Below are positions 9,504 through 54,083 of a stretch of 64,000 nt of DNA, one piece after another. The translations under genes and the position numbers were made by a program. Location: contig CAYRBH010000002.1 of the NCBI GenBank assembly GCA_964422585.1, forward strand, positions 13,428-77,427, in the 5' to 3' direction. Position 1 is the first letter of the stretch, and each line of letters starts with the position of its first letter. The DNA comes from an uncultured Gammaproteobacteria bacterium (lineage in GTDB: Bacteria; Patescibacteriota; Patescibacteriia; UBA1558; 2-01-FULL-52-15). Below the pieces are notes generated by a model, which saw only the letters and a list, made by a program, of their open reading frames with translations, was not told the origin of the DNA and did not search any database.

Positions 9504-12463
9504 CCTCTATGCCTATTCGTCAACTGAAACGAAAAGATGCTGAGGAGCCACGAAGCGCTTTTAGCACGCATAGTTTTACCAACGACAATACTATGAGCAC
9601 CGCCGACAGACGCAATGCTTCACGAAATACTCCAACCTCATCATCATGGACTACAAGCCCGCGAAGAGGAGGAACGCCAAAGAAACGCATACGCCGGCAG
9701 AAGACGCTCCTTGCGACATTCATTCGCTTGGGGTTGTTACTATTCCTGATCGGCGGAATTGGATTAGTGACTGTCTTTGCCTACTACTCGAAGGATTTGC
9801 CCGATCCGAATAAGATCATACAGCGCGATGTTGCTCAGAGCACGAAAATCTATGATCGTACCGGCACGGTATTGCTCTATGAGATACATGGAGCTGAGCG
9901 CAGGACCTCTATCGAGCTCTCTGACATACCGCAATATGCGATTAATGCGACTATCGCTATCGAAGATAAAAATTTCTTCAAGCATAGCGGTCTTTCATTC
10001 CCCAGTATCCTCAAAGCTATCGTCCTGGACGTCGCGAGCAAGATCGGCTTATACCATGGTATCGTTCCTGGCGGCTCAACCTTGACCCAGCAATTCATCA
10101 AGAACGCAGTACTCACAACCGAGAAAAGTTACTCCCGTAAAATTAAGGAGTTCGTGCTTGCCTATAGACTCGAGCAGAAATTCAGCAAAGAGCAGATACT
10201 CAAACTCTATTTCAATGAAATACCCTATGGCTCGACAGCGTATGGCATTGAGGCCGCCTCTCATATCTACTTCGACAAATCAGCGAAAGACCTGACCCTC
10301 GGCGAAGCCGCGATTCTCGCCGCATTGCCACAGGCCCCAAGCTACTACTCGCCTTATGGCGAGCATAAGGACGAGTTGATCGCGCGACAGCGTCTGGTCT
10401 TGAAACTCATGGTCGAGCAGGGTTATATCACCCAAGATCAGGCTCAGGCCGCTCGTGATGAAAAGATTGTCTTCAAGAGAAAACAGGAGGATATCAAGGC
10501 GCCGCATTTCGTGTTCATGGTGAAAGACGAATTGGCGCAGCGCTATGGAGAACGCCTCGTGGAGCAAGGCGGCCTGAAGATCATCACGACACTTGACTAT
10601 GATAAGCAAAAGATCGCCGAACAAACTATCAATGAGATAGGCGCTACCAATCTCGAAAAATACAAGGCGCAGAACGCGAGCCTGGTCACCATCGATGTGA
10701 ACACCGGGCAGGTGCTCGCGCTCGTAGGCTCGAGGGACTATTTCGATGACTCTATAGACGGGCAGGTCAATGTAGCGACAAGCCTCCGGCAGCCTGGCAG
10801 CTCCTTGAAGCCGATGATCTACTCTGAAGCATTCAATCAAGGCTACCGACCAGATACTATGATTTTCGATCTGCGGACAGCCTTCTCGAGCGACTACTCT
10901 CCTCAAGACTATGATGGCAAAGAGCGGGGCCCGATCTCGCTGCGCGATGCCTTACAAGGTTCGCTCAATATCCCTGCAGTTAAAATGCTCTATCTCATAG
11001 GCGTGCCGCGCGCCATCGAGCTCGCCCAGCAGCTTGGTTATACCTCACTCACCGATCCAAATCGCTACGGCCTATCACTAGTGCTCGGAGGTGGTGAAGT
11101 GAAGCTCATCGAGCATACGAACGCCTATGCGGCCTTCGCGCGCGAAGGTGTCTATAAACCCTATGCGGATGTACTGAGCGTTCAAGATGCTAATGGTAAC
11201 ACCTTAGAGCAATTCACTGATACTGAAGGACAGCGCGTGTTACCGCGAGAAGTCACCCGGCAGCTTTCAAATGTACTCTCAGACAATGATGCGCGCACGT
11301 TCATCTTCGGCGCGGGCAATCATCTCGTACTCGACGGCAGGCCGGTCGCGGCAAAAACCGGTACGACGAATGACTACAAGGATGCCTGGACCATGGGCTA
11401 CACCCCCTCCATAGTTACTGGCGTCTGGGTCGGTAATTCTGATAACACCTCCATGGGCCCGAAGGCTGACGGTTCTGTCGTGGCTGCTCCCATTTGGCAG
11501 AAGTATATGAATGCTATCCTCAAAGACACTCCTGTCGAACAATTCAAAGCGCCGGAGCCCTTGCCTGCGTGCACGAAACCTATGCTCTGCGGGACCTTAG
11601 GAAGCGAACGGGTTGTCAGGATTAATATGGATAATGGTAAACTTGCTGGCCCTGCGACACCGCCATCGAAAATCAAAGAAGTCACCTACAAAGAAGTGCA
11701 TGAGTTGCTGCAGTATGTAGACAAAACGAACCCAACCGGCCCTGAGCCAGCTGATCCCACTGCGGATCCACAATACAGCGCGTGGGAAGCGCCCGTACAG
11801 CAGTGGGCGCAAAAACAAGGATACCTCACTGATGTCCCACCGACCGAGATCGACACGACGTATAGCACCGCTGACCAACCATCGATCAACTGGACTTCGC
11901 TACAAGATGGCGCAACTATCACCTCGTTGCCTATCACTCTCAGCTCACAAGCTTCTGGGCCGCATGGCGTTGCAAAGGTGACCTATCTGTTGAACAATCA
12001 GATTATAGGCACGGCGACACAAGCTCCGTACACCTTTGCCTTCACGCCAAACACAACAGTACAAAATGGTACGTACACCTTAAGCGCCCGCGCGACTGAT
12101 AGTCTTGGCGATGAGCAACAAAACGATATTACGGTAACCATTAACCTGCCGCCTGACCCGAATGCCTGGTCAATTAACTGGATAGCGCCAGAACCGAACG
12201 CAACCTACGCGCTTGCGAATGTGCCAACAGAGCTACAGATAGGGATTACCAATCCACAGCGCATTAAAAAAATTGACTTCTACTATGCCAACGAAGGCGC
12301 GCCGCATTTCATTGGTTTCCAGAATGTCAGTGGCCAGACGCAACTAAATGAACCCTGGATAAAACCAGATTCGCCGGGGACCTATCAACTCTACCTTGTC
12401 GTGACTGATATACATAACCAGTCAATGACAGATCCTCTCATCTCTATTTCGGTCACCAATTGA
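9497..12463 (+). CDS. Bifunctional class A penicillin-binding protein (transglycosylase/transpeptidase) with long C-terminal Ig-like extension
   Basis: GT51 motifs EDKNFFKHSG, GGSTLTQQ and RKIKE. Transpeptidase motifs SSLKP, SLN and KTGTT. Single N-terminal TM segment. 988 aa. Confidence 0.9.
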   Translation: MTSSMPIRQLKRKDAEEPRSAFSTHSFTNDNTMSTADRRNASRNTPTSSSWTTSPRRGGTPKKRIRRQKTLLATFIRLGLLLFLIGGIGLVTVFAYYSKDLPDPNKIIQRDVAQSTKIYDRTGTVLLYEIHGAERRTSIELSDIPQYAINATIAIEDKNFFKHSGLSFPSILKAIVLDVASKIGLYHGIVPGGSTLTQQFIKNAVLTTEKSYSRKIKEFVLAYRLEQKFSKEQILKLYFNEIPYGSTAYGIEAASHIYFDKSAKDLTLGEAAILAALPQAPSYYSPYGEHKDELIARQRLVLKLMVEQGYITQDQAQAARDEKIVFKRKQEDIKAPHFVFMVKDELAQRYGERLVEQGGLKIITTLDYDKQKIAEQTINEIGATNLEKYKAQNASLVTIDVNTGQVLALVGSRDYFDDSIDGQVNVATSLRQPGSSLKPMIYSEAFNQGYRPDTMIFDLRTAFSSDYSPQDYDGKERGPISLRDALQGSLNIPAVKMLYLIGVPRAIELAQQLGYTSLTDPNRYGLSLVLGGGEVKLIEHTNAYAAFAREGVYKPYADVLSVQDANGNTLEQFTDTEGQRVLPREVTRQLSNVLSDNDARTFIFGAGNHLVLDGRPVAAKTGTTNDYKDAWTMGYTPSIVTGVWVGNSDNTSMGPKADGSVVAAPIWQKYMNAILKDTPVEQFKAPEPLPACTKPMLCGTLGSERVVRINMDNGKLAGPATPPSKIKEVTYKEVHELLQYVDKTNPTGPEPADPTADPQYSAWEAPVQQWAQKQGYLTDVPPTEIDTTYSTADQPSINWTSLQDGATITSLPITLSSQASGPHGVAKVTYLLNNQIIGTATQAPYTFAFTPNTTVQNGTYTLSARATDSLGDEQQNDITVTINLPPDPNAWSINWIAPEPNATYALANVPTELQIGITNPQRIKKIDFYYANEGAPHFIGFQNVSGQTQLNEPWIKPDSPGTYQLYLVVTDIHNQSMTDPLISISVTN

Positions 12464-12632
12464 CCGTCAGGTACTATTACTTGGTTATTGACAAGGATAC
12501 CGTACTGTTGTACCGTAGAGCGTTCTATGGTTAAATTGAATAAACGCACACACAGGCCTATTCCATAGTGGAATTTGCCCAGCGTGCACTCAACGTACCT
12601 TGACTTATAGGTTTAGGAAGGTGGTGATACCA

Positions 12633-13340
12633 GTGCGCCGATTCGTTTCTCTGTTTGTGACCGTGTTCGCTCTGTGCGCTCTCGAAGCGTACGCCGGAGA
12701 CCAGCCGAAGCCCCTCGTCATCCCTGACAACTTCTTCATGGCCTACGTCAAGCCGGACAACACCGTGGCCTTCGGGTTCTCGGTGCCGCCCGACGCAAAC
12801 CCCAACTTCGCTGAAGCAGACGCCAGTTGGTGGAACGTCGTCGCCAAGCACCGGGTCCTCATGGACACGAACGCCGACTACAAGGCGGCCTACTTCGCGA
12901 CAGCGAGCGATCCTGATCTCCAATCCACCGGCATTACGTTCAAAGCCTGGTCTACGGCATCGCAAGATGAAAAGGCCACGTTGCGGGCCACGTTGCGGCA
13001 GCGCGTCGCAGACGTACTCCAGAAACATGGTCTTCGAGACCAGCTCGCGAGCCTGCAGGCAGACAACCAGCAAGTCGCCCTCATGGCGATGCAGTTGAGC
13101 GGAGCGAAACGCACCGCTCTCCCCCTCGTCCGGTTCTGTCCGGGTGCCGAAGGCAACATCTCCGTCAATCACAACGACCCCGACTTCCCGAAGCTTGAGC
13201 AAGCGATGAAGACACCACGCTACGACGAGGCTCTCGTCGCTTTCAAGAACTTCGAAGCCGAACACCCCAACGCGTCGATCGACGACCGCACCGCTAAGCT
13301 CAACGAGCTCGTGCGGCCACTGCTGACCGCGTCCCAATAA
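12633..13340 (+). CDS. Secreted hypothetical protein (GC-rich, likely horizontally acquired)
   Basis: GTG start preceded by GGAAGGTGG RBS. Signal peptide (LFVTVFALCALEAYA|G). Coding GC is markedly higher than flanking genes. The ORF track extends to 12600. Confidence 0.5.
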   Translation: MRRFVSLFVTVFALCALEAYAGDQPKPLVIPDNFFMAYVKPDNTVAFGFSVPPDANPNFAEADASWWNVVAKHRVLMDTNADYKAAYFATASDPDLQSTGITFKAWSTASQDEKATLRATLRQRVADVLQKHGLRDQLASLQADNQQVALMAMQLSGAKRTALPLVRFCPGAEGNISVNHNDPDFPKLEQAMKTPRYDEALVAFKNFEAEHPNASIDDRTAKLNELVRPLLTASQ

Positions 13341-13385
13341 CCGACCTCTCCAGGAGGAGGGTCACTTCGAAAGAAGGAGTCTGGA

Positions 13386-14114
13386 ATGATGAAGAACAGA
13401 CCGTCTCTCGTCCTCGGCTTGATCGCGTTCGCCGCCATGACCCCCGCCTCGTTCGCGGCGCAGAAGTCCGCGTCACCCCCGGTCAGTCTGACCCACAACG
13501 GGAGACTGAACGCTCCGCTTACGCCGATGCAGAACGAGATCTCGATCTACGTGACCGACACCGGCCGGCTGATCAGCCCGCCACCCATCGACTCGGCGAC
13601 CAACCAGCCGACACTGGACCTCGAGAAGGTCGCGAAGCACGAAGCCACGCAGGTCTGGATCAACGACAACCTGGACCATCTGAACGCCGTCGTCGGCAGA
13701 TTCGCCGCCGAGGCAAGAACGGCCAAGGCATCCGACGTGACCGGATACATCAATACCGCCTTGCAGGCTCACCTCGCGCAGATCGGAGCAGGCCGCGAAA
13801 TCGACAGGATCAACGCGACCATGATCCACCAGCTGGCAACGCCGGCGCCAAGCCCGGTTTCGACCGTCGGCAACAACCCGACCAACGCATCCCTCGTCGG
13901 GAACGTCGGGAAGGGCCAGGAGATCGACCCCAACAAGTACGCGCAGCTGAACGGCAGCTGCGGTCCTCGGGGCACGTGCCTCACCGTGGTGGAGATCTGC
14001 ATCACCGACCCGACCGGGACGAGTTGCAGCGTCATCGACTGCGACACCGGTTGCCGTGGCTGTTGCGGCTACGGCCTCAAGATGGCGGCGGTCGACCCGC
14101 CGGCGGCTTTCTAG
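13386..14114 (+). CDS. Secreted hypothetical protein with Cys-rich C-terminal tail
   Basis: AGGAG RBS and signal peptide. About 10 Cys lie in the last ~50 aa (CGPRGTC...CSVIDCDTGCRGCCGYG). GC-rich. Confidence 0.5.
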   Translation: MMKNRPSLVLGLIAFAAMTPASFAAQKSASPPVSLTHNGRLNAPLTPMQNEISIYVTDTGRLISPPPIDSATNQPTLDLEKVAKHEATQVWINDNLDHLNAVVGRFAAEARTAKASDVTGYINTALQAHLAQIGAGREIDRINATMIHQLATPAPSPVSTVGNNPTNASLVGNVGKGQEIDPNKYAQLNGSCGPRGTCLTVVEICITDPTGTSCSVIDCDTGCRGCCGYGLKMAAVDPPAAF

Positions 14115-14161
14115 CCGTACCTTCCTTCCCACAACCAGCCCGCGCGCAAGCGCGGTCTTCA

Positions 14162-14201
14162 GGGCGCGGGGACCTCACGGTTCTCGCGCCCTCCTTTTTT
14201 T
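14162..14201 (+). terminator. Rho-independent terminator after the GC-rich two-gene block
   Basis: GGGCGCG...CGCGCCC stem followed by a T7 run. A GNRA-loop hairpin lies just upstream. Confidence 0.5.
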
Positions 14202-14290
14202 GGAGGCAGATATGCCTATCGTCCTTGCCAGAAGAATTCGGCTACGGCGCATCTCCACACGGGGGGGGTGCGCTTTTCTTTTACAAAAAT

Positions 14291-15001
14291 TTAGAGGCGC
14301 CAGGGCAAGAGAAGTGTATCGAGGATATTCGAGCGGCCGATCTTCGAAGCCCCGATCGTCCTATCTCGAAAGGTAATAGCGACCTCCTCAATCCGCGCAT
14401 GCGCTTTCACAGCTGCCCAGCTTGTTTCTATTTGAAAAGCATACCCATCTGATCGTGTAGCTGTTATACCAATGCGCTCAAGCAAAGAAGTTTTCCAGAT
14501 CTTATAGCCGCTGGTCGAGTCTTTAATATGATACTGCGGATCTTTGAAGCGAAGGATGGCGTTAATATATATGTTCGCTATACGGCTTACTAGCAAACGA
14601 AAGTATGACCAATGAGAAATGGAACCGCCTTTGACATAACGACTACCAATGACCAGCTCAGCGTCCTGCGCTTTTTCTAGCAGCCCCCGCAGGGCATGAG
14701 GGTCATGAGATCCATCAGCGTCCATTTGGACGACGATATCATATCCCCGCTCGAGCGCCCAGCGAAAACCATCACGATAGGCGCTTCCAAGCCCTTGTTT
14801 AGAGCCTCTCTGCACAAGATGTATCGACGGGTGCTGCGCGCACTGTTCCCGCATATACTCCCCCGTACCATCGAGGGACCCGTCATCAATGACGAGTATA
14901 TCCAAGGGCAGCCCCCTGAGCGCATCGATAAGGATCGGGAGTGCTCCGCGCTCATTATAGGTTGGTATCACTACCAGTGTTTTTGCGTCGAGCACAGCCA
15001 C
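14291..15001 (-). CDS. Family 2 glycosyltransferase (polyprenyl-phosphate sugar transferase-like)
   Basis: N-terminal VVIPTYNE...DDGSxDGT motifs of GT2 / Dpm1-like enzymes. Confidence 0.75.
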   Translation of the reverse strand: MAVLDAKTLVVIPTYNERGALPILIDALRGLPLDILVIDDGSLDGTGEYMREQCAQHPSIHLVQRGSKQGLGSAYRDGFRWALERGYDIVVQMDADGSHDPHALRGLLEKAQDAELVIGSRYVKGGSISHWSYFRLLVSRIANIYINAILRFKDPQYHIKDSTSGYKIWKTSLLERIGITATRSDGYAFQIETSWAAVKAHARIEEVAITFRDRTIGASKIGRSNILDTLLLPWRL

Positions 15002-16107
15002 TACTGTTTAATGGGCATGATGACATACACAAACCCATCCTCCTTCGGCGCAGTAAGTACGGCGGGCGTGGTTGGCTCATTGGTCCTTAGTGTCGCGCGG
15101 TCGCTTGAAATATGCGCGAGACCATCAAGTAAAAATTTATAGTTAAAAACTATATCAAGCTCCTGTTCTTTGACCAAACTTGGCACATTCGAAATGTTCT
15201 TGCCGAATGTACTGTTCTCAGCGTTGATGGCAATGTCTGAGAAGCGCTTGTCGAGAGAGATTCGTACGTCATTGATACCTTGCTTACAAAACAGAGAGGT
15301 TGTTTTGATCGCCTGCGCCATATCATATACCTTGAACTCCACGATATTCTTGAATGTGGTTGGGATTATTTGTTTATAGTCCGGATAGTCGCCGGTGATA
15401 ATGCGGGAAACTAGTTGTGTTTGGCCACATACAAAAAGTATCTGGGTATCATTGATGGTGATTGTTGTATTTTCCTCTTCCGAGAGCGGCAACACTCGAA
15501 CTAACTCCTGCAATGTCTTTGAGGGAATGATTATTGCTCGGGGATGTGGGGTTTTTGTTGCGAGCGAAACCTTTTTTTCAACGAGGCGATAGCCGTCTGT
15601 CGCCACAAATATACAGTGTTTGTCTTCAAGGATGATATACACACCAGTGAGTTCTGGCCGAGACTCGTCGTTTGACACCGCGAAAACAGTTTGATTAAGC
15701 GCCTCGATGAGTGTTGCTGTTGGCAGGGTGATTGTGGTTTTTGCCTCTACCTCTGGGATTACCGGAAAGTCGGATGATTCAAGGCCACGAATAGTTGTTT
15801 GGTGGTTCTCGCCGCGTAAGTGCAGTGTTTTGTCCACCAACTCAACCTCGACATTCTCTTTTTTCAATGTGTTAACAAATTCGGAGAGAAGCTTCGCTTG
15901 TACCGTAAAGTCTCCCTCAGACTCGATCTTACCACGCACCTTTGTTTTTATGCCTATCTCTAAGTTTGTTGAAACCAACAGTAAACCATCTTTTCTTGCC
16001 TGCAAAAGCACATTATTTAAAATGGGCAGGTTTGTGTTTTTATCACTTAATCGCGCGACAATATTTAATCCTCTGGAAAAATTTTCTTGTGTGCAGGTTA
16101 ATTTCAT
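15001..16107 (-). CDS. dnaN: DNA polymerase III beta sliding clamp
   Basis: 368 aa with a conserved N-terminal region (NLPILNNVLL). Sits directly downstream of dnaA. Confidence 0.85.
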   Translation of the reverse strand: MKLTCTQENFSRGLNIVARLSDKNTNLPILNNVLLQARKDGLLLVSTNLEIGIKTKVRGKIESEGDFTVQAKLLSEFVNTLKKENVEVELVDKTLHLRGENHQTTIRGLESSDFPVIPEVEAKTTITLPTATLIEALNQTVFAVSNDESRPELTGVYIILEDKHCIFVATDGYRLVEKKVSLATKTPHPRAIIIPSKTLQELVRVLPLSEEENTTITINDTQILFVCGQTQLVSRIITGDYPDYKQIIPTTFKNIVEFKVYDMAQAIKTTSLFCKQGINDVRISLDKRFSDIAINAENSTFGKNISNVPSLVKEQELDIVFNYKFLLDGLAHISSDRATLRTNEPTTPAVLTAPKEDGFVYVIMPIKQ

Positions 16108-16356
16108 ACAACTCTTATTAGGGGTTTTATATACTATTGATAGTTATAATAATAGGGTGTGTGGATAGGTGGGTAAGTGTTGGGGGGTGGGTTTTGGCTT
16201 GATTATGTAGTAAAAAATGAGGTGCTGTGTGTGTACAAATTTTGGATGAGGCTGGGTATGTTGTTGTGGATGTTTGGGTGAAGAAAAAAGTAAGTTTTTT
16301 GTTTTTGTGTATAAGGTTTAGATATTCAGAATATGAGAAACAGTTAAACACATTTT
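16108..16356. promoter_or_regulatory. Candidate oriC region (dnaA-dnaN spacer) with G/T-rich, C-depleted top strand and degenerate DnaA boxes
   Basis: TGTGGATAG at 16160..16168. Further TGTGGAT-like 9-mers near 16241 and 16265. G-tracts GGGTAAGTGTTGGGGGGTGGG. Almost no C on the + strand over ~200 nt. Confidence 0.4.
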
Positions 16357-17733
16357 TTACTCATACATTTTTTGACGCAGCAGGGCCACATCATTCCTAA
16401 TTTTTTCATTCGAATTCAAATACTCTTCTATCTTACCGCAAGCGTGCATGGCGGTTGTGTGATCCCTGCCACCAAGCTGCTGGCCAATATGCGGATATGA
16501 ACAGGACATTTCTTCGCGCAATAAATACATCGTGATCTGTCGAGGTATGACCAGCTCTTTTCTTCTAACCGGCCCGGCCAGATCTTTCAGTGATATGTCA
16601 AAGAAGTCGGCGACCAGCTGAATGAGCTTTTTACTGGTCAGACCGCCTTTTTGAGGCTTTGAGCTCGTGGAAACCAAGAGTGTTTTGGTGGATTCTTTTG
16701 TTGGCGTTGAATTAGAAAGTTGATGGTAGGCCACGATTCTATTTAAAGCGCCCTCAAGCTCACGAATATTTTCAGAAACGGTTTCAGCGATCGACCTAAT
16801 GATATCAGGGTCTAATAAGAGACCTCGTTCTTGGCACTTTGATTCAAGAATAGCGATGCGAGTCTCAAGGTCGGGCGCGCTGATATCAGCTATCATCCCC
16901 CACTCAAATCTTGAAACAAGCCGGTTTTCAATAGAAGGTATTGATTTTGGAGGCCTATCTGAACTCAGAACGATCTGCTTGTTTGTTTGGTGCAGGGCGT
17001 TGAAAGTGTGGAAAAATTCCTCTTGGGTCTGTTCTTTGCCGGCGATGAATTGTATATCATCAATCAATAATACATCGACCGATCGGTAGGTCTTCTTAAA
17101 TTTCTCAGTCGTTCCTTGTTTGATGGCGCTTACGAAATCATTCGTGAACCGCTCGCTATTTACGTAGAGCACCTTTAGCTTTGGGTTCGTACTTGCAAAA
17201 TGATTCCCGACAGCCTGGATTAAGTGCGTCTTGCCGAGGCCAACGCCGCCATAGATAAAGAGCGGGTTATAAATTTCCCCCGGCCTTGTGACAACAGCCT
17301 TTGCTGCCGCATGGGCCAGCTCATTACCAGAGCCAACGATAAAGGTATCGAAGGTATATTTTTGGTTCAAACCAAGCTTCCCATTCTCAGAATCAGAGCG
17401 ATCAAGCGGGAAAGGTGCCTCAGCAGATGGAGTGTGTTTAGCTGTTTTTTGTCCTGAGCTCGGTGATGGTTTCTCACCCTCTTGTTTTGCGGAGACGCGA
17501 TACGAAATAGTCAAATTTTTCTCACCAGTGATATTCCCTATGGCAGTCGCTATCTGGTCATTATATTTTTTTTCCAACCAAGCCTTGGTAAAAGCGTTGG
17601 GCACCCCGATCACTGTTTCACGCGGACCATGTTCGATTATAAAAGTGTTCTTGAACCAGGTCGTGAAGTTGACCTTGCTTATCAATATCTCGAGCTCACC
17701 GAGAACAGCGTGCCAGAGTTGATTAGTATCCAT
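16357..17733 (-). CDS. dnaA: Chromosomal replication initiator protein DnaA
   Basis: Walker A GLGKTHL and LLIDDIQF motifs. C-terminal DNA-binding domain motif DHTTAMHAC. Confidence 0.95.
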   Translation of the reverse strand: MDTNQLWHAVLGELEILISKVNFTTWFKNTFIIEHGPRETVIGVPNAFTKAWLEKKYNDQIATAIGNITGEKNLTISYRVSAKQEGEKPSPSSGQKTAKHTPSAEAPFPLDRSDSENGKLGLNQKYTFDTFIVGSGNELAHAAAKAVVTRPGEIYNPLFIYGGVGLGKTHLIQAVGNHFASTNPKLKVLYVNSERFTNDFVSAIKQGTTEKFKKTYRSVDVLLIDDIQFIAGKEQTQEEFFHTFNALHQTNKQIVLSSDRPPKSIPSIENRLVSRFEWGMIADISAPDLETRIAILESKCQERGLLLDPDIIRSIAETVSENIRELEGALNRIVAYHQLSNSTPTKESTKTLLVSTSSKPQKGGLTSKKLIQLVADFFDISLKDLAGPVRRKELVIPRQITMYLLREEMSCSYPHIGQQLGGRDHTTAMHACGKIEEYLNSNEKIRNDVALLRQKMYE

Positions 17734-17968
17734 GGGTTTTTGTATACAAGCTTTTGATAGGTCCTAGAATAGCACAAAAGGATATTCACAGAAACGCCCT
17801 TATCGTGCACATACTGTTGATAATCTGTGTATGTCGTAGTACCTCATATTTTTTATTCTGTCCAGCCCTCTACTTGTGGCAATGCTGCTCAAAAATCATT
17901 GTACTAGTACACTCCGCGACCTATGCATTTACAAAGCAAGGTATATGTGATACTTTTTTCTAGTATCT

Positions 17969-18729: not shown

Positions 18730-19419
18730 ATGTTTATTTATACCGAAGTATTATACAAGCCACTTTTTAACCTATTGATCTTTTTGTATAACACCATCCC
18801 AGGTCATGACCTGGGTGTTACTATCATCGTGCTGACGCTGATCATCAAGTTGGTGCTGTATCCACTGAACCGGCGCGCCATCATATCCCAGAAAGCGCTG
18901 CAGACCATACAGCCGAAAGTTGAAGAGTTGAAAGAGAGGTATAAGGATGATCGCGAAAAGCTTGGTACGGAGATGATGCAGTTGTATAAGCAAGAGAAAA
19001 TAAATCCTTTTTCTTCCTGTTTGCCGCTCTTGATACAGCTACCGATACTCATCGCTGTCTATCAGGTGTTTATACATGGTCTCAAGAATCAAAGCTTCGA
19101 ACTGCTGTACCCGGGTATAGCGAGTCCAGGCTCTTTGAGCACCTTCGCTTTTGGCTTCCTTGATCTTTTGAAGCCGAATCTTATACTCGCGCTCATGGCA
19201 GGGCTCGCCCAATTCTGGCAGACGAAAATGCTTATGGCCAAGAATAAAAAGGCCGGTTCCATGACTTCAGCCATGAATTCCCAGATGCTCTATATGATGC
19301 CGGTAATGACTGTTATTATTGGATCTCGTTTTCCGGCCGGCCTGGCACTCTATTGGTTCTCGACTACTTTTTTCTCAGTACTCCAGCAGATGTGGATGTT
19401 CAGGAAAAAAACCGCTTAG
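18730..19419 (+). CDS. yidC: Membrane protein insertase YidC (short form)
   Basis: 229 aa polytopic protein in the canonical rnpA-yidD-yidC position. Confidence 0.8.
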   Translation: MFIYTEVLYKPLFNLLIFLYNTIPGHDLGVTIIVLTLIIKLVLYPLNRRAIISQKALQTIQPKVEELKERYKDDREKLGTEMMQLYKQEKINPFSSCLPLLIQLPILIAVYQVFIHGLKNQSFELLYPGIASPGSLSTFAFGFLDLLKPNLILALMAGLAQFWQTKMLMAKNKKAGSMTSAMNSQMLYMMPVMTVIIGSRFPAGLALYWFSTTFFSVLQQMWMFRKKTA

Positions 19420-20731: not shown

Positions 20732-20983
20732 AGTTTTTCAGGTTAACATTAAGTTTTAACGCTTGAATAGTAGTTAGTTTCTAGGTAAATGTCAAAACTA
20801 ATTCCTTTAGATAGACAAAAAAATAGCCCTCATATACTATTGTAATGCTTTTTAGTTGACTCAGGGTCAATGTATGTAGGTATGATTTATTTTATGACGC
20901 ATTTAATTAGCTAATATAAAATAAATATCTATATTTAATTTTAATAAATCCTTTGGAATGTTCCACAAGGAACAAAAACATAA

Positions 20984-21058
20984 GCCCTTGTAGCTCAACG
21001 GATAGAGCAAATCCGTCCTAAGGATGAGATGGGGGTTCAATTCCCTCCAGGGGCACCA
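20984..21058 (+). tRNA. tRNA-Arg (anticodon CCT), CCA encoded
   Basis: Manual cloverleaf: acceptor GCCCTTG/CAGGGGC, anticodon loop GUCCUAA, T-loop TTCAATT, 3' ACCA. Confidence 0.8.
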
Positions 21059-21480: not shown

Positions 21481-21599
21481 GACTTAGACTCCTAAGAGGA
21501 GGGTTAACTGCAGTTTGAAGAGCTTAATATATAATATTAACATTTAATAAAGTATTTGTCAATAGCTATAAATAGTAGGATCATTTGACTTATTGATCT

Positions 21600-40944: not shown

Positions 40945-41511
40945 ATGAAAAAAAGAGCTTTCATTATTCATGGTTGGGGAGGTTATCCTGAGGAAGCCTG
41001 GTTTCCTTGGTTGAAACAAGAACTAGAGTCGCGTGGTTTTGAAGTGCAGGTTCCGGCTATGCCGGATTCAGATACTCCGGTGATCGAAACATGGGTTTCG
41101 TTTTTGAGTAAACTCATTGGTGATCTTGACGAAAAAACGTATCTCATCGGACATAGTATTGGTTGTCAGGCAATACTCAGATACCTTGAGCGTCTGCCTG
41201 AGAACGTGAGAGTTGCAAAAGCGGTTTTTGTCGCAGGTTGGTTTACTTTGCAGGGTTTAGAAACAAAAGACGAAGAAAGAATTGCTGAACCCTGGCTTGA
41301 GCAACCGATTAACCTAGAAAAAGTTCGTGCGCATATTCAGGAAAACACTGCCATTTTTTCTGATGACGACCCCTTCGTTCCATTGATAGATAAGGATATT
41401 TTTTCGGAGAAACTTCAATCGAAGATTGTCATCGAACATGCAAAGGGCCATCTCAGCACTGAACATGGCATTACGGTATTGCCTAGTGTGTTGCAGGCAG
41501 TCATTGAATAA
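40945..41511 (+). CDS. Alpha/beta hydrolase of the RBBP9/YdeN serine-hydrolase family
   Basis: FIIHGWGG N-terminal motif, nucleophile elbow GHSIG and a C-terminal His. Confidence 0.6.
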   Translation: MKKRAFIIHGWGGYPEEAWFPWLKQELESRGFEVQVPAMPDSDTPVIETWVSFLSKLIGDLDEKTYLIGHSIGCQAILRYLERLPENVRVAKAVFVAGWFTLQGLETKDEERIAEPWLEQPINLEKVRAHIQENTAIFSDDDPFVPLIDKDIFSEKLQSKIVIEHAKGHLSTEHGITVLPSVLQAVIE

Positions 41512-41562
41512 AAAAACCCCGCCGACCAAGTCGCTGCTTGATGGGCGGGGTTACTGCTTTTT
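41512..41562. terminator. Bidirectional rho-independent terminator at the low-GC / high-GC boundary
   Basis: A7 run, then stem CCCCGCC...GGCGGGG, then a T6 run. It works for the + hydrolase and for the - strand purA. Confidence 0.55.
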
Positions 41563-41568
41563 TCGAAA

Positions 41569-44600
<3,032 letters not shown>

Positions 44601-44750
44601 TGTGTATTCCTCCTCAAGTCGTGAGATGTACGGTGGGGGTAAGTAGTTTCGTTCTGTCAAAGGACATGAAATCCCACTTAGGCTTTCTGTGGGATGCAGA
44701 GCTACCTTACGAAAAAATAGTGATAGGCGCAAGATCATTTTTTGTTCCAC

Positions 44751-44779
44751 TTGACAGGTTTTCAATAACCTGATATAGT
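44751..44779 (+). promoter_or_regulatory. Consensus sigma70-type promoter (TTGACA-17-TATAGT) reading into a non-coding GC-rich segment
   Basis: TTGACA at 44751..44756 and TATAGT at 44774..44779. The surrounding region is AT-rich. Confidence 0.4.
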
Positions 44780-45693
44780 ACTTGATTGTTACATATTTTG
44801 ATCTTTTTATCTTTGAAATAGTGGCCAAGAAAAGGCTAATTTTGTATCAAGTAGGCAGCCATGCTGTCTAATGAAAGCTGCTATCCAGACTCGTAATGAC
44901 GAGCATCTTGAGGATAGCAAGCTCAGCCGATACTTACTTGTTAACGGAAAGTATAAGGAATAGAGCAAGTTAGTCTTTTCTTGGCCATCGATAGACGTAT
45001 GGGACGTTTCGGCATGGTCAAGGAAGAGAGGTGCTGCTTGAGGCTCGGTCCGGGAGATTTTTTCCACACCATCATGAAAGACCAGTTGCGTAGCGACTCC
45101 GTGACCACGACCAAGGCCGTCGGCGCCGGCTCGGGCCAGACTCAGCCGACCTCCGCGACTTCCTGAAGCGCATGTACGTCGACGTACGCGCGGTTACGGT
45201 CCGCGTTCAGTAGGTCGGCACACAGGCGCTCGACGCCACAACTGTCAGCCGACAGGTGGTCGGCAGAGGAGCATGCGAAGATGCAGCTAAACGTCAAGAA
45301 GGGGGGCGCGGTTCCCGCGTTCGACGCGCAGCGTCGCTGACATCATCACGGTCGAAAGACCAACAGTTGCCTCTGCTAAGAGGGGGTAGAGCTCGCACAT
45401 GCGGCAGACCAACCGGGTAGCACAAGGATTATATCCTTCCCTCCCAACAGGTCGTGCCCGCGCCAGCACAAGACCCCATGGTGAGCCGCACCCGATCGAC
45501 CCTACGTTTGTGAGGACTCCCAAACCTCACCTCATTCATCGCAGCGAGCGGCGGCCTCTGTAGCGCCACTCAACCCCACGCGATGGGCGCGTAATGCCGA
45601 CCCTACCAGGTCGCGCGAACGTCCGCCGGCCGGCGATAGTGAGACCGCATCAAGCGGTGGGTGCACAGGTCAACCTGTGCAGTTTCTGTCCCT

Positions 45694-45745
45694 GGGGGAC
45701 CTTCGGGCGTTCGCAAGAACGTTCGTTGGTCCCCCTTTTATTTTC
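45694..45745 (+). terminator. Strong rho-independent terminator closing the GC-rich non-coding segment
   Basis: Stem GGGGGACC...GGTCCCCC with a nested CGTTC-GCAA-GAACG hairpin, followed by TTTTATTTT. Confidence 0.5.
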
Positions 45746-45797
45746 CTAAGATTTCTGATTGCATTTTTTATCGCCTATGATAGTATCGTGCAAGATT

Positions 45798-45812
45798 CCG
45801 TAAAATTTACGG
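45798..45812. promoter_or_regulatory. Perfect 7-bp-arm palindrome downstream of a TTGCAT-16-TAGTAT promoter, upstream of the ParB-like gene
   Basis: CCGTAAA a TTTACGG. Promoter -35 at 45759..45764 and -10 at 45781..45786. Confidence 0.35.
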
Positions 45813-45878
45813 ATCGTTCATTTCTAACACTAATTGTTTCTTTTCTCAGCCAAGATGGCTGATCAAGGAGGAGACTGA

Positions 45879-46805
45879 ATGACCACTCCGGCCGCTGCGA
45901 AGAGCCTGAAGTCTGTCCGCAAGCCGACCGCTCCCTCGTCCGGGGTCGTTCTCGAGATCCCCTTGGGATTGATCCGTAATTTCGTCGGACAGCCCAGGAA
46001 ACATTTCAACCAGGCACGTTTGGCCGAGCTTGCTACGAGTATCAAGAAGCACCGTCAGATCACGCCGGGGATGGTCATCGAACTCCCTCCGGGCGAGGTG
46101 TACCGTTACGAACTGGTCGATGGTGAACGTCGTTTCATCGCTTGTAAGATGGCCGACACGAAGATCTTCCGCGCTGAAGTGGTAACGGTCACGGATTCGA
46201 GAGAACAGCTTCTCAGGTCGGCGATCGCGAACTACCATCGCGAGCCGCATACAGCCCTCGAGGATGCTGAGACCTGTCGTCGGCTTGCTGAGATCTATGA
46301 GATGTCATGGCCGGAGGTTGCGGCCACGCTCGGCAAGTCTCTCACATGGGTGACACAGTCTCGTATCCCGCTGCTCCAGCTGGATAAGCGGGTGCAGGCG
46401 ATGATCGAGCCCTCATCCTCGAAGTTGGGCGAGCTGCCCGTTCTGATGGCGGTCGAGCTGACCAAGGTGCCAGCGACTAAGCAGTATCAGATGGCGGTGA
46501 AGGCCGTGCATGACGAGATGCGTTTATCCGATATGCGCCACGCCGTTCGCCGTTTCCAGAACAAGACCGGCTACCGACATGGTACGAGGCGTATTCGTAC
46601 CCCCGGCGATGACTACAAGTCGATTACTACGTTCTATCGGAGATCTACTGCTGATGCGCAGCTGTGGCTCTCCATGACTCCTGTGGCGCTCGCGAAGATG
46701 TTCGAGAACCGTCCGGAGATGGACTATCGGCGGTTGCTCAAAGCATCGGCGAACGCGGCCATCATCTATGGCCGTCTGATGAAGAAGATCCAGGATTTGA
46801 AGTAG
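45879..46805 (+). CDS. ParB/Sulfiredoxin-domain (ParB N-terminal nuclease-like) protein
   Basis: GERRFIA motif of the ParB N-domain. 308 aa. No adjacent parA. Confidence 0.6.
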   Translation: MTTPAAAKSLKSVRKPTAPSSGVVLEIPLGLIRNFVGQPRKHFNQARLAELATSIKKHRQITPGMVIELPPGEVYRYELVDGERRFIACKMADTKIFRAEVVTVTDSREQLLRSAIANYHREPHTALEDAETCRRLAEIYEMSWPEVAATLGKSLTWVTQSRIPLLQLDKRVQAMIEPSSSKLGELPVLMAVELTKVPATKQYQMAVKAVHDEMRLSDMRHAVRRFQNKTGYRHGTRRIRTPGDDYKSITTFYRRSTADAQLWLSMTPVALAKMFENRPEMDYRRLLKASANAAIIYGRLMKKIQDLK

Positions 46806-46846
46806 TCAGTACGCACCCGTTCCTTCCTACACGCGGCACAAGGGAG

Positions 46847-48133
46847 ATGATTATGTCTCGTAAACAGATTGAGTTGAGCCCCGAAGAGTTGGCAGAGGCT
46901 GCTCAGTTTGCGCGCGAGGCAGAAGAGCTTCACGCGCAACTCGATACAGGTACTGATCCGGTGATCGAAGAACCGTCTCGGGCTTTGAGGCCGATCGCTG
47001 AACGTAAGCCTCGATCGGCCAAGGGTCAGCCGAGCTCGACTTCTAAACAGCAGGCAACACTGGCAAGGCTCAAGAAAAAGGATCCTTACTCGGTGGTCCC
47101 GTTCACGCAGTATCTGCACGAGATGAGCCGGCACAGTCTGATCGACTATGACAAGGAGCAGGAGACGTTCACGCGTCTCGGAGAGCATCGGGTCAAGTTG
47201 CAGCTCTTGGCTGGCGGTTTGTCCGAGCACTGTCGCGCGTTCTGCGAGAAGGAGTCTGAGTTCGAGATGGCGAATGAGGAGTGGCGTTTCACTGACATAG
47301 AGAGTTTCGTGGGACGCCTCAGGTTCTACCATGGGGAGCCTCGGGTCTCTGACGAGGTCTTTGCTGAGGCGCGGAGCCACCTCAATGCCATCAGGGCTGC
47401 TCGGGATGAGATGATCCACGCGAACTTGCGTCTGGTCATTCACATCGCGAAGAAGTACCTGACGCACGGCGTTCCGTTCATGGACCTGATCCAGGAGGGT
47501 AATGTCGGTCTCATGAAGGCCGTCGAAAAGTTCGAGTACAAGCGAGGCAACAAGTTCTCTACGTACTCGTACTGGTGGATCAAGCAGTCGATCGAGCGGG
47601 CCATCGCGGACAAGGGACGACTCATCCGTGTTCCAGTGCATAAGCAAGAGAAGATCAAGAAGATGCAGCGCGTGTTGCGCGAACTGCCGGATGGCTTGAG
47701 TCGCACGGAAAGAGCGGCCGAGGTCGCGAAACGGCTCCGGTGGGCCTTGGGTCAGGTCGAGTCGCTCATGCTGGTCGTCGAGGAGCCAATGAACCTCGAT
47801 GATTTCATCGACGATTCGCATGAGCAAAACTTCCACATGCTTGTTGCTGATCCGCAAGCTGTCGATGGCGAGGAACAGTATGAGCAGCAGCAGTTCCGAG
47901 AGCGCGTGCGTGCCTTGCTGCACCAGATCAAGGAACCGCGGGATCGGTACATACTCGACTTGCGCTTCGGGATTAGCAGTGGTACGCCGATGACCCTCGA
48001 GGATATCGGTCGGAAGTTATATCTCTCCCGCGAACGGATACGCCAGCTTGAAACATTAGCGATGAATCAGATCCGTGAGTATTTGGACACTGACACCGCT
48101 GAGCTGCGGACACTTCACGAGTTACTGCAATGA
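46847..48133 (+). CDS. RpoD-family (group 1/2-like) sigma-70 factor
   Basis: Region 2 DLIQEGNVGLMKAVEKFEYKRGNKFSTYSYWWIKQSI and region 4 HTH LEDIGRKLYLSRERIRQLE. Start set at the in-frame ATG with GGGAG RBS; the track ORF begins at 46664 and overlaps the ParB-like gene. Confidence 0.8.
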   Translation: MIMSRKQIELSPEELAEAAQFAREAEELHAQLDTGTDPVIEEPSRALRPIAERKPRSAKGQPSSTSKQQATLARLKKKDPYSVVPFTQYLHEMSRHSLIDYDKEQETFTRLGEHRVKLQLLAGGLSEHCRAFCEKESEFEMANEEWRFTDIESFVGRLRFYHGEPRVSDEVFAEARSHLNAIRAARDEMIHANLRLVIHIAKKYLTHGVPFMDLIQEGNVGLMKAVEKFEYKRGNKFSTYSYWWIKQSIERAIADKGRLIRVPVHKQEKIKKMQRVLRELPDGLSRTERAAEVAKRLRWALGQVESLMLVVEEPMNLDDFIDDSHEQNFHMLVADPQAVDGEEQYEQQQFRERVRALLHQIKEPRDRYILDLRFGISSGTPMTLEDIGRKLYLSRERIRQLETLAMNQIREYLDTDTAELRTLHELLQ

Positions 48134-49919: not shown

Positions 49920-50267
49920 ATGAAGCGCAACCTGACTGATGTGATGCATCCGAAACTCGTCCGAGATAAGATCCCCGATAGGATACGTAGAGATCAGCGT
50001 ATCCCGGTGACGCGGGAGGCCTTGCCGGAGGAGCGTCTGGGTTTTGTGGTGGCAAAGCTCTGTGAGGAAGCGCGCGAGCTCCATGACAATCCCGATGCTA
50101 AGGAATACGCTGATGTTCTCGACGTCGTGCGGCTGCTCCGGATCGAATTCGAAAAAAAATTCGACAAGAAGTTTCTCGGCGCCGAACGTCGACGCAAGAA
50201 GAAGGAAAACGGTGGCTTTCGTAAGTTCATCATCTTGGTGGACATTCAAGAGTCTTCATCAGTCTGA
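49920..50267 (+). CDS. MazG-like / HisE-like nucleoside triphosphate pyrophosphohydrolase
   Basis: EExxE...E/D-x-x-D metal-binding helices (KLCEEARELHD...EYADVLDVV) and C-terminal KKKENGGF. 115 aa. Confidence 0.5.
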   Translation: MKRNLTDVMHPKLVRDKIPDRIRRDQRIPVTREALPEERLGFVVAKLCEEARELHDNPDAKEYADVLDVVRLLRIEFEKKFDKKFLGAERRRKKKENGGFRKFIILVDIQESSSV

Positions 50268-50294
50268 CAGCAGTGCTGTCAGCGGGAGGATCGC

Positions 50295-51572
50295 ATGAGC
50301 CGCAATGTCATGGTCGTCGGCAGCGGCGGCCGTGAAGGGTCGCTGTTGCATAAGTTGAGCGGATCGCCGCACAAGAAGAAGCTGTTCTGCTCACCCGGGA
50401 TCGGTAATGCGCATGAGATGGGCGTTTTGAATACCGGCATCGCCCAGGACGATATCCTTGGGATCGTCGCATTCGCGAAGAAGCATCACATCGAGCTCAC
50501 GGTCCCTGGTCCGGATGTGGTGTTCGCCGCGGGGATCGCGGACGCATTTCGCGCGGCCAAGCTCCGGATTGTCGGGCCTACTCAGGCGGCCGCGCGCGTC
50601 GAATCCTCGAAGGTGTTCGCCAAGCGCCAGATGCAACGTCTGGGCATACCTACGGCGGCCTTCGAGGTTGCCTATTCGATGAGTGAGGCGCTCGACATTC
50701 TGGGTCGACGCTCATTCCCGTGCGTGATCAAGCTGGATCGCCTCGCTCGAGGTACCGGCGCTACGCCCGTGCATTCCTATTCGGCGGGCATCGCAGTTCT
50801 CTCAGGGTACTATCAGAAGAACCCGAGAGAGGCCATCCTGATCGAAGATTTCCTCGTGGGGCATGAGGTGTCTACCCATGCGCTCTGCAGTGGAAATCGA
50901 GTCCTCATGTTTCAGGGGGCACGTGATTACAAAACGCTCAACGGCAGGAATACCGGCGGTATGGGTGCCTACTCTCCGGTACCCGACATCGACGATGCCT
51001 TCTTGGCGCAGGTCAGGCAGGTCGCTATCGATCCGCTACTTCGGATGCTCGCGAAAGCTGGCACTCCATTCGATGGTTGTTTGTACCCGGGACTCATGGT
51101 AACTGCCGAAGGGATCATGGTGATCGAGTACAACTGTCGCTTCGGCGACCCTGAGGCGCAGGTGTTCATGCGCAGACTTGGAAATGAGAGCGATCTTTTG
51201 CTACTTCTCGAGTCATGCGCTGACGACAACCTGGACACCACTCCATTGCACTGGAACGCTGAACCTGCCGTGTGCGTGGTGCTGGCTTCGGCGGGCTACG
51301 GCGTGCCGGGTGCTCTCTGCCCGTCCTCAGAGTATCCGTCGATGCCGATCAGTGGCTTGCGAGAAGCCATGAAGGTGCCTGGCGTGGAGATATTTCACGC
51401 GGGTACCCGACTCGAGAAGGGTGTGTACTGGACCAATGGTGGTCGCGTGCTGAACGTCACTGCAGTCGGCGCAACACTTGCCGAAGCCCGTGCGCGCGCC
51501 TACGCCGCGGTTGCCTTGATTCACTTCGACGGTATGCAGTACCGTCTGGACATCGGCGAGGTAGCAGCATAA
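50295..51572 (+). CDS. purD: Phosphoribosylamine--glycine ligase
   Basis: N-terminal VVGSGGREGSL motif and an ATP-grasp body. 425 aa. Confidence 0.85.
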   Translation: MSRNVMVVGSGGREGSLLHKLSGSPHKKKLFCSPGIGNAHEMGVLNTGIAQDDILGIVAFAKKHHIELTVPGPDVVFAAGIADAFRAAKLRIVGPTQAAARVESSKVFAKRQMQRLGIPTAAFEVAYSMSEALDILGRRSFPCVIKLDRLARGTGATPVHSYSAGIAVLSGYYQKNPREAILIEDFLVGHEVSTHALCSGNRVLMFQGARDYKTLNGRNTGGMGAYSPVPDIDDAFLAQVRQVAIDPLLRMLAKAGTPFDGCLYPGLMVTAEGIMVIEYNCRFGDPEAQVFMRRLGNESDLLLLLESCADDNLDTTPLHWNAEPAVCVVLASAGYGVPGALCPSSEYPSMPISGLREAMKVPGVEIFHAGTRLEKGVYWTNGGRVLNVTAVGATLAEARARAYAAVALIHFDGMQYRLDIGEVAA

Positions 51573-51597
51573 CCACGCTGACAGAGAGGAGATAGTC

Positions 51598-51927
51598 ATG
51601 CTAGGAGATCCAAGTGGTAATCTGAACGCAGATGATTCAGCAGAGCCAACCATTGCTCAACGTGAGCTCAACTACGTTGAGTACTTTTTCCCTGAAGCAG
51701 AAGAAGCTGAAGGGGAATCTACTGACAAGCTTCGGTGTGGCGAGGCTCAGGTAACGGAGACGACGGATCCTGCAGCGATGCAGTTTCCTGAGGGAGCGGT
51801 CGCTCTTCGTTTCTATCGGGCAGCCGAAGTTCGTCATCTGCTCAACGGCAGTTGGAAGTTAGCTAGCGCTAAGCGCGTCTGGGAGTCGCCTATGATTCCC
51901 ATCACGCGAACACGCTTCAAGAGGTAA
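51598..51927 (+). CDS. Hypothetical protein
   Basis: 109 aa with an acidic N-terminal half. No recognisable motif. Confidence 0.3.
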   Translation: MLGDPSGNLNADDSAEPTIAQRELNYVEYFFPEAEEAEGESTDKLRCGEAQVTETTDPAAMQFPEGAVALRFYRAAEVRHLLNGSWKLASAKRVWESPMIPITRTRFKR

Positions 51928-52142
51928 GGACGCCCCATCGGGTTTGCTGAGCATAGGCTCGGCCGACTCGGTGGGGTTTTGAATCGTCTTGTTTTTTATA
52001 GTACATCATCTAGTATGCAGATAGACGAGTCAGACCAGGAGGCCTGGCTTGTATGTTCTTCGAAAACTGAGTGAATTGATAATTTTCTTTGGCCGAACAA
52101 CATCGTCGCGACTACTAGGTCGCACTAAAGGAGACAGATAGC

Positions 52143-52919: not shown

Positions 52920-52965
52920 ATCCGTGCTTCCCACACCAATACTTTTTCTGCCCTAAGGAGGGACC

Positions 52966-53736: not shown

Positions 53737-54083
53737 CCGAAATGCCCGCCGGCGTCGAAGACGCGCGCGTAAGGGCGGTCAGTACTTCAAGCAAGGCCGC
53801 AAAGTCAAAGCCTGCTATCATAACTACTGGCCGCACTCCGGTCGCCGCTGAGCGAGCGCGGCCGCTCATTCACTCATAACAAACCGCAGAATAGGAGGCT
53901 GCGGAGGAGGCAAAGGTTAGCTATGGCTAACCTTTTTGCTTTTGCTGAGTAGGTTGAAATTTTCTGGTACTTGACTTTTTAAAGTAGATTATGTATAGTA
54001 GGTGTTTAGTTTGTTCTGCTCGCATAGTGCGAGTAGGGCGCGGGTTCATTTAATGTTTCCTTTCAAGGCATAGGAGAAGAAAC

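Follow-up and report, generated by a model that had tools for sequence, protein, structure and literature searches.

A predicted basal unwinding system in the dnaA–dnaN spacer of an uncultured Patescibacteria genome

The basal unwinding system (BUS) of the Bacillus subtilis chromosome origin (oriC) has been described in a series of studies (PMC6669920, Richardson et al. 2019; PMC8287927, Pelliciari et al. 2021; PMC10721633, Pelliciari et al. 2023). A BUS was defined as a DnaA box with no more than two mismatches lying 0–16 bp from at least three DnaA-trios (3′-NAN-5′), which are carried downstream on the opposite strand; 3′-GAT-5′ trios, tandem boxes, a GC-rich gap of ~4 bp and a spacer of 10–13 bp are preferred (PMC8287927). 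The B. subtilis module reads TTATCCACA / AATCCACA / GGCC / CTACTATTACTT..., with the trio stretch also given as CTACTATTACTTCTACTA and a spacer of 12 nt (PMC8287927, supplement). It lies in the incC region, which has a distal subregion of boxes as well; for the module's own boxes, 6/7, orientation is a strict requirement (PMC6669920). For Clostridioides difficile, the portions of PMC7561715 drawn on here describe two origin halves, oriC1 between rpmH and dnaA and oriC2 between dnaA and dnaN, with DnaA-dependent melting mapped to the dnaA–dnaN spacer and the oriC2 trio sequence given as CACCTACTACTATTACTACTATGA. Here we describe the dnaA–dnaN spacer of a 64-kb stretch of contig CAYRBH010000002.1 (hereafter the window, meaning the whole stretch that was analysed), which comes from an uncultured Patescibacteria genome. 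We read this spacer, with a probability of roughly 0.85, as the unwinding half (incC/oriC2 type) of a bipartite, Firmicute-style oriC that flanks dnaA and carries a BUS. The sense strand is that of dnaA (minus), and the top strand is plus.

Read on the sense strand toward dnaN, the window module is TTACCCACC / TATCCACA / CACC / CTA TTA TTA TAA CTA TCA ATA GTA / TATAAAA CCCC TAATAAGAGTTGT ATG, the final triplet (the complement of 16105–16107) being the dnaN start codon. The box CTATCCACA, with one mismatch, lies 4 nt and TTACCCACC, with two mismatches, 12 nt from the first trio; the tandem 9-mer and 8-mer followed by CACC thus give the same 12-nt spacing as in B. subtilis and Listeria. Downstream, on the strand opposite to the box reading, follow at least three consecutive trios (sense CTA TTA TTA). 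These three box-proximal trios (16147–16155) are perfect matches to [G/A]AT and are succeeded by one mismatched triplet and then by another matching trio, the whole array being the predicted single-strand binding track for a DnaA oligomer. When both strands of the window were scanned with a composite score (box, box and trios), the best match was found at 16176(−). The second best, with a score of 24.0, was an opposite-facing site at the dnaA end of the spacer; it was rejected as a second BUS, relatives having at that end a reverse box pair, with coding sequence on its far side, and no trios. The DnaA sites are adjoined by an unstable, AT-rich candidate DNA unwinding element (DUE) at 16125–16155, for which a duplex stability of −27.8 kcal/mol was calculated against a window mean of −42.3; among 63970 positions it ranks 22nd, and two loci alone in the window are less stable.

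The genes around the spacer are those expected beside an origin. The order is yidC-yidD-rnpA-rpmH / dnaA-dnaN, with dnaA and dnaN on the minus strand and rpmH, rnpA, yidD and yidC following on the plus strand, and the NCBIfam matches are well over their cut-offs (Table 1). The window DnaA aligned over its full length with 8btg_A, its best match among solved structures (chain residues 6–444, E = 6e-125); that chain is annotated as chromosomal replication initiator protein DnaA, and its position 190 aligns with V201 of the window protein. We take 8btg to be the B. subtilis BUS complex and position 190 to be the single-stranded DNA contact residue I190, an identification of our own and not database output. 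GC skew in the window stays below zero over roughly the first 15 kb and above zero beyond about 21 kb, and the cumulative G−C minimum of the 64 kb falls at 15046, about 1 kb from the spacer. A weak change of skew sign was also seen at the BUS in pooled relatives. An earlier, sequence-only reading had proposed an oriC DnaA-binding and unwinding region here on the strength of dnaA and the rpmH-rnpA-yidD-yidC cluster; the NCBIfam matches, the BUS and the relatives all support it.

Table 1. Features of the dnaA–dnaN spacer and its surroundings (window coordinates; box positions such as −138 are counted from the first BUS box, negative values lying upstream; bits refer to the clade box matrix except for the two genes)
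Feature	Coordinates	Strand	Basis or remarks
dnaA–dnaN spacer, whole	16108..16356	−	sense strand nearly without G; composition
BUS upstream box TTACCCACC	16168..16176	−	2 mismatches to TTATCCACA, 8.8 bits; 12 nt before first trio
BUS downstream box CTATCCACA	16160..16168	−	1 mismatch, 11.3 bits; abuts upstream box as 8-mer TATCCACA; equals top-strand TGTGGATAG
GC cluster CACC, 4 nt, between boxes and trios	16156..16159	−	sequence
DnaA-trio array, 5′-TAC TAT TGA TAG TTA TAA TAA TAG-3′	16132..16155	+	3′-GAT AAT AAT-5′ beside boxes
Candidate DUE, least stable 31-mer of spacer, 87% A+T	16125..16155	.	nearest-neighbour stability
CCCC and weak ribosome-binding site (AAGAG, 16112–16116), approach to dnaN start	16108..16124	−	sequence
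G-tract segment overlapping BUS boxes	16167..16191	+	G4Hunter 1.92, window maximum
Weaker co-oriented box TTGTACACA, at −62	16230..16238	−	7.3 bits; boxes of relatives grouped at −64 to −66
Second tandem pair TCACCCAAA / CATCCACA, at −97	16265..16281	−	ACATCCACA = 9.0 bits (16265–16273); relatives have boxes there
Upstream box TTATACACA, BUS orientation, at −138	16306..16314	−	10.5 bits; relatives' same-orientation box at about −139
Distal opposite-orientation pair TGAGAAACA-G-TTAAACACA, degenerate, beside dnaA stop	16334..16352	+	TTAAACACA 6.2 bits (16344–16352)
DnaA boxes, rpmH–dnaA spacer	17782..17834	−	TTATCAACA 17815–17823 (12.2 bits), ACATACACA 17826–17834 (5.9 bits), dnaA orientation
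ATATTCACA, rpmH–dnaA spacer	17782..17790	+	8.8 bits
dnaA, full-length canonical initiator	16357..17733	−	TIGR00362, 534.6 bits
dnaN (beta clamp), directly downstream of candidate DUE	15001..16107	−	TIGR00663, 284.7 bits

Comparison with related genomes had been suggested by the same reading as a check, and it showed both the BUS module and the upstream box positions to be conserved. Relatives were collected as 80 genomic loci retrieved with the window DnaA (53–76% identity), to which metagenomic loci were added to give 123 distinct spacers; many of the related loci are labelled Patescibacteria, Komeilibacteria, Kerfeldbacteria, Buchananbacteria or Parcubacteria. In the genomic loci dnaN follows dnaA in 76 of 80, lies elsewhere in one and falls past the fetched sequence in three, and the 123 spacers have a median length of 263 nt (5th–95th percentile, 211–313 nt). 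Once aligned on the dnaN start, the spacers display two abutting boxes, a G+C-rich gap of 3–4 nt, YTA triplets and usually, ahead of the start codon, an AT-rich tract. Of 77 related spacers, 73 have this box-box-gap-YTA arrangement no more than 80 nt from dnaN, and in 56 of 77 the gap of 3–4 nt is G+C-rich. Under a strict rule, whereby at least three perfect consecutive YTA triplets had to be preceded within 16 nt by a 9-mer with no more than two mismatches, 69 of the 123 distinct spacers qualified, whereas shuffled sequence gave 0.7 and the opposite strand 8, and the modal distance from upstream box to first trio was 12 nt. Closer relatives suitable for nucleotide footprinting were sought and not found, the best being 76% identical in DnaA in the genome collection (L001) and 66% in the metagenome collection; a pairwise alignment of the window and L001 spacers was too diverged to inform.

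Many of the closest genomes (L001–L005 and others) are titled 'uncultured Gammaproteobacteria bacterium', and their DnaA, synteny and origin architecture group with metagenome-assembled genomes of Patescibacteria. These titles look like mislabels from automated submission.

Further DnaA boxes are spread over the spacer. Derived from the BUS boxes of relatives, the clade box matrix reads T-T-A-T-C/A-C/A-A-C-A, TTATCAACA being as frequent among those boxes as TTATCCACA. Box-like 9-mers (no more than two mismatches to TTATCCACA) number 8 in 300 nt at the spacer, seven of them co-oriented, against a maximum of 5 elsewhere in the window. The three top-strand 9-mers listed in the sequence-only reading were all located, TGTGGATAG at 16160–16168, TGTGGATGT at 16265–16273 and TTTGGATGA at 16241–16249; the last of these scores below 5 bits with the clade matrix, and that list had overlooked the trios, the partner box TTACCCACC and the boxes TTATACACA and TTGTACACA. 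At 16265–16279 the BUS pair of 16160–16174 is directly repeated over 15 nt with 80% identity, and the distance of 105 bp, or ten helical turns, would set both box pairs on one face of the helix. Upstream boxes are far more numerous than expected in the relatives' spacers, both in the same orientation (86 versus 11 expected) and in reverse (98 versus 5.5 expected), with reverse boxes from −220 to −145, tandem ones lying at −200 to −145 and abutting the dnaA stop, and same-orientation boxes from −140 to 0. The window boxes at −138, −97 and −62 coincide with positions that recur in these relatives. The DnaA-box cluster is conserved and beyond chance in the relatives, the window's own excess being marginal when composition is controlled for (P = 0.03–0.075).

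A second set of boxes occupies the rpmH–dnaA spacer. Same-orientation boxes are again enriched there in relatives (138 versus 12 expected) and are concentrated 120–80 nt ahead of the dnaA ATG; the conserved pair of the window sits ~90–100 nt ahead of the dnaA start, and a promoter-like site, 17882–17855 (−), lies just upstream of the 17815–17834 boxes. This spacer had been put forward as a possible DUE with box-like sequences. Its least stable 31-mer ranks only 248th in the window, versus 22nd for 16125–16155, which disfavors the DUE; the boxes stand, as a conserved DnaA-box pair. They are a probable oriC1/incAB-like half and dnaA autoregulation site, and their recurrence suggests conserved DnaA autorepression across the clade.

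Based on the similarity to B. subtilis, a course of events at this origin can be proposed. Domain IV of DnaA would bind the abutting pair TTACCCACC / TATCCACA (16160–16176), from which ATP-DnaA would oligomerise over the 4-nt GC cluster onto the top-strand trios (3′-GAT/AAT-5′). The oligomer would then stretch the top strand and melt the adjoining AT-rich tract, from 16125–16155 on toward the dnaN start, where helicase would be loaded. A distal subregion may be recognised in the three co-oriented boxes (16230–16314) together with the degenerate reverse pair at the dnaA stop; it probably serves to concentrate DnaA locally or to loop onto the BUS, a role demonstrated for B. subtilis boxes 1–3. 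The other half of the origin would be the rpmH–dnaA boxes, which probably also autoregulate dnaA. The sequence anatomy, conservation, geometry, local skew minimum and low duplex stability are direct observations, from which we infer DnaA binding, unwinding at the spacer and the looping role.

The spacer also stands out in composition. It had been described as C-poor and G/T-rich on the top strand over ~200 nt, and direct counting agrees: the 249 nt hold A69 C12 G73 T95, and the 200 nt poorest in C contain 5 of them next to 66 G. Elsewhere in the 64 kb neither C nor G drops below 21 in any 200 nt, and the window has no second asymmetry like it. On the sense strand the first 40 nt past dnaA contain 4 G and 5 C and the other 209 nt 8 G and 68 C. 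The overall sense-strand skew of −0.72 would rank second if set among the spacers of the 123 relatives, where C exceeds G on this strand in 93% and the median skew is −0.27. The relatives' skew is −0.73 across the BUS part and about −0.17 across the upstream part; resolved by position, it lies above zero between −220 and −145 and below zero beyond −140 toward dnaN, so that skew sign and box orientation both switch at about −145, ~145 nt upstream of the BUS. The counts on either side of the first 40 nt give the window spacer the same break.

Because box orientation and GC skew flip together in the relatives, we regard the asymmetry as a property of the DNA and not of an RNA leader; the sequence pattern argues that the bias tracks the orientation of G-free DNA motifs and not the dnaN leader RNA. 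The elements from about −140 to the dnaN start lack sense-strand G and are all co-oriented (TTATCMACA boxes, YTA trios and C-only GC clusters), and the extreme asymmetry would for this reason be mainly a by-product of the origin layout, the near-total lack of G between the boxes being an extreme of a clade-wide trend and only partly explained. Comparable tracts, rich in CA and free of G, are seen in some relatives of higher GC (L065, L155 and L040) and are absent from L063 and L066; as they vary among relatives, they are not required for this origin type. Those of L155, L065 and L040 are long and near-G-free, sit upstream of the BUS and occur independently in these other lineages (an example is ACCACCCACAACTCATCCACAACCACACACCCC). 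The L155 spacer is short (117 nt), which may reflect a dnaN start misplaced in automatic extraction.

The origin reading rests on the gene identities, the local skew minimum, the top-scoring BUS, its conservation, the B. subtilis geometry and the low duplex stability. Several observations weigh against it. The window lacks a perfect TTATCCACA, and in the BUS the upstream box departs from it at two positions; just three consecutive trios are perfect, and the AT tract is short (31 nt) ahead of CCCC. The composition of the spacer itself favours box matches, at least three upstream boxes of at least 7 bits being found with P = 0.075 and, at 9 bits, with P = 0.029. A second, shallower local minimum of cumulative G−C lies near 21 kb, and the view extends over 64 kb. 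The layout also leaves part of the asymmetry over: by direct count, the inter-box DNA of the window has 3 G versus 43 C in 111 nt, and the half-sites CMACA, CCAC and ACAC were not enriched over dinucleotide shuffles in the window spacer. Many weak DnaA half-sites were considered as the source of this G-free inter-box DNA and rejected, the window counts being no higher than in dinucleotide shuffles; in pooled relatives the same three counts exceed shuffles with z of 3–5. As half-sites are not enriched beyond dinucleotide composition, the inter-box G-freeness is not accounted for by recognisable sites.

The zone around the second skew minimum was considered as another origin. The segment 20700–21900 is very AT-rich and mostly non-coding, surrounds a tRNA at 20984–21055 and contains the two least stable 31-mers of the window (20913–20943 and 21525–21555). 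An origin at 20.7–21.9 kb was rejected, there being no box cluster and no BUS-like site.

For the G-freeness that is left over, it is unlikely, in our estimation, that the near-total absence of G from one strand over ~200 nt is a functional origin device beyond the co-oriented boxes. One possible form of such a device is a strand-marking track that extends a directional DnaA filament across very weak sites. In another, antisense transcription that starts in the DUE would form an R-loop or quadruplex, which the G-rich non-template strand would stabilise. A promoter-like site is present on the plus strand at 16126–16153, and, were this second form true, it would yield a G-rich RNA that could aid opening or priming in a minimal replication system of the candidate phyla radiation (CPR). 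We hold it decidedly unlikely that the extra G-freeness is mutational, a reading in which the top strand by the DUE would be single-stranded unusually often and C-to-T deamination would amplify the ordinary leading-strand excess of G and T. The top strand is indeed rich in both bases (G73 and T95 versus C12 and A69), with the sign expected to the right of an initiation point, but at 0.72 its bias far exceeds the ~0.1 of replication skew, the value is −0.32 in L001, the closest relative (76% identical in DnaA), some relatives have no bias or the opposite sign, and the sign flip of the relatives at −145 follows motif orientation. Mutation and weak sites may nevertheless contribute to the unexplained part of the skew.

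Other explanations address the spacer as a whole. The C-rich, G-poor stretch could act as RNA, namely as a ~200-nt unstructured leader in a dnaA–dnaN read-through transcript that serves as a Rho rut site or dnaN translation enhancer. Read-through from dnaA is plausible, as the spacer yielded neither a terminator-like nor a minus-strand promoter-like site. The 249-nt RNA has essentially no predicted structure (−9.3 kcal/mol), and many members of the clade have more C than G on the sense strand. A leader-wide property would not flip inside the spacer together with box orientation, however, as the relatives' skew does at about −145; G depletion in relatives peaks over boxes and trios (−0.73), the predicted folding equals that of shuffles (z = +0.5), and a C>G bias is entirely absent from several relatives of high GC. 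Rfam searches returned no match in the spacer (14–20 kb at E ≤ 1; the whole window at gathering thresholds), which likewise counts against a leader RNA; the only nearby match was AsdA inside dnaA. We judge this explanation very unlikely. It would be highly improbable, too, for the box cluster to be purely transcriptional, governing dnaN through DnaA or titrating the protein while replication begins elsewhere. DnaA boxes do also serve as operators, those here are degenerate with no perfect consensus, and the view is limited to 64 kb; yet an oriented pair with trios at 12 nt and a highly unstable AT tract marks an unwinding module and not an operator, the local skew turns at the spacer, and no other box cluster of the window is comparable. 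The sequence-only reading had raised a G-quadruplex from the top-strand G-tracts. As a functional origin element, for example one helping duplex opening, such a quadruplex or an i-motif is scarcely credible: the segment 16167–16191, which sits on the BUS boxes, does have the top G4Hunter score of the window, but there is no canonical motif of four G3+ tracts with N1-12 loops (a 13-nt loop would be required), a canonical motif occurs on that strand in 2 of 77 related spacers, and the tracts are explained by C-rich box variants and the GC cluster in a genome of ~48% GC.

A minus-strand open reading frame at 16127–16351 translates to T/H/P-rich low-complexity sequence. It was rejected as a real protein, chance stop-free stretches in related spacers being comparable (median 54, maximum 84 codons); its earlier dismissal as spurious was reasonable, the product being of low complexity and the spacers having diverged even from that of the closest relative.

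Several observations were made on neighbouring genes. YidC (18730–19419) is only 229 amino acids long, a short monoderm-type form without the large periplasmic domain, in keeping with an origin laid out as in Firmicutes and with the monoderm-like envelope proposed for CPR bacteria. Within dnaA, at 17174–17253 (+), a sub-threshold Rfam match to AsdA was recorded (30.9 bits versus a gathering threshold of 52, E = 0.002). AsdA is an antisense RNA of dnaA mRNA in Salmonella, and the match most likely reflects conserved dnaA coding sequence and not an antisense RNA gene. Blocks with a G+C content of 53–59% were found at 12000–15000, 41000–47000 and 50000–54000, the rest of the window having 42–50%. 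Two open reading frames in this first block, 12600–13340 and 13386–14114, have no NCBIfam match and are overlapped by long opposite-strand reading frames. The high-G+C blocks could be foreign or compositionally distinct islands, right beside the origin.

The kind of element described here is well understood and will not surprise a specialist; it is described here in a CPR lineage, and searches of the literature collection used found no paper on the origin architecture of Patescibacteria. On the reading of the spacer as a BUS-bearing oriC half, the origin of an uncultured Patescibacteria genome is placed to within about 50 bp, and one CPR branch (relatives labelled Komeilibacteria, Kerfeldbacteria, Buchananbacteria and Parcubacteria) would share the BUS of Bacillus and Clostridioides, including the 12-nt distance from box to trio. 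A BUS in CPR agrees with the published view of this system as ancestral in bacteria. In practice, the site offers a fixed point from which CPR assemblies can be oriented and read coverage turned into estimates of replication rate, and the details of the clade (the common TTATCAACA, a spacer of ~260 nt and the joint flip at −145) could guide a DnaA-box model for origin finders.

Set against known systems, the window origin resembles those of E. coli and Thermotoga maritima, as far as the parts of PMC10316083 and PMC10325909 used here describe them, in its box arrays of mixed affinity and in the fixed orientation of sub-arrays relative to the DUE; those two origins, on the same partial accounts, lie outside the dnaA–dnaN spacer, unlike that of the window, and E. 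coli scores weakly for a BUS. C. difficile belongs to another phylum and differs in box number and positions, and the portions of its description drawn on here report no comparable strand asymmetry; within the same portions, the bipartite layout is alike, and its CACC TAC TAC TAT TAC... is nearly identical to the window CACC CTA TTA TTA.

The comparison with B. subtilis is the closest, with some differences. The boxes of the window BUS are degenerate (TTACCCACC and CTATCCACA), with the downstream one the better of the two, and only three consecutive trios are perfect; the clade uses TTATCAACA as often as TTATCCACA, the distal boxes of the window at the dnaA stop are reversed, the sense strand is almost G-free over ~200 nt, and the window element is predicted from sequence, that of B. 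subtilis having been defined by experiment. As in B. subtilis incC, however, the element is located between dnaA and dnaN, with rpmH upstream of dnaA and the same order and orientation of its parts. A 9-mer box abuts an 8-mer box, a 4-nt GC cluster follows, and 12 nt separate the upstream box from the first trio. The 3′-[G/A]AT-5′ trios lie opposite to the 5′-TTATCCACA-3′ reading, with an AT-rich tract next and then dnaN. In both origins there are, in addition, boxes in a distal subregion and another cluster of them upstream of dnaA.

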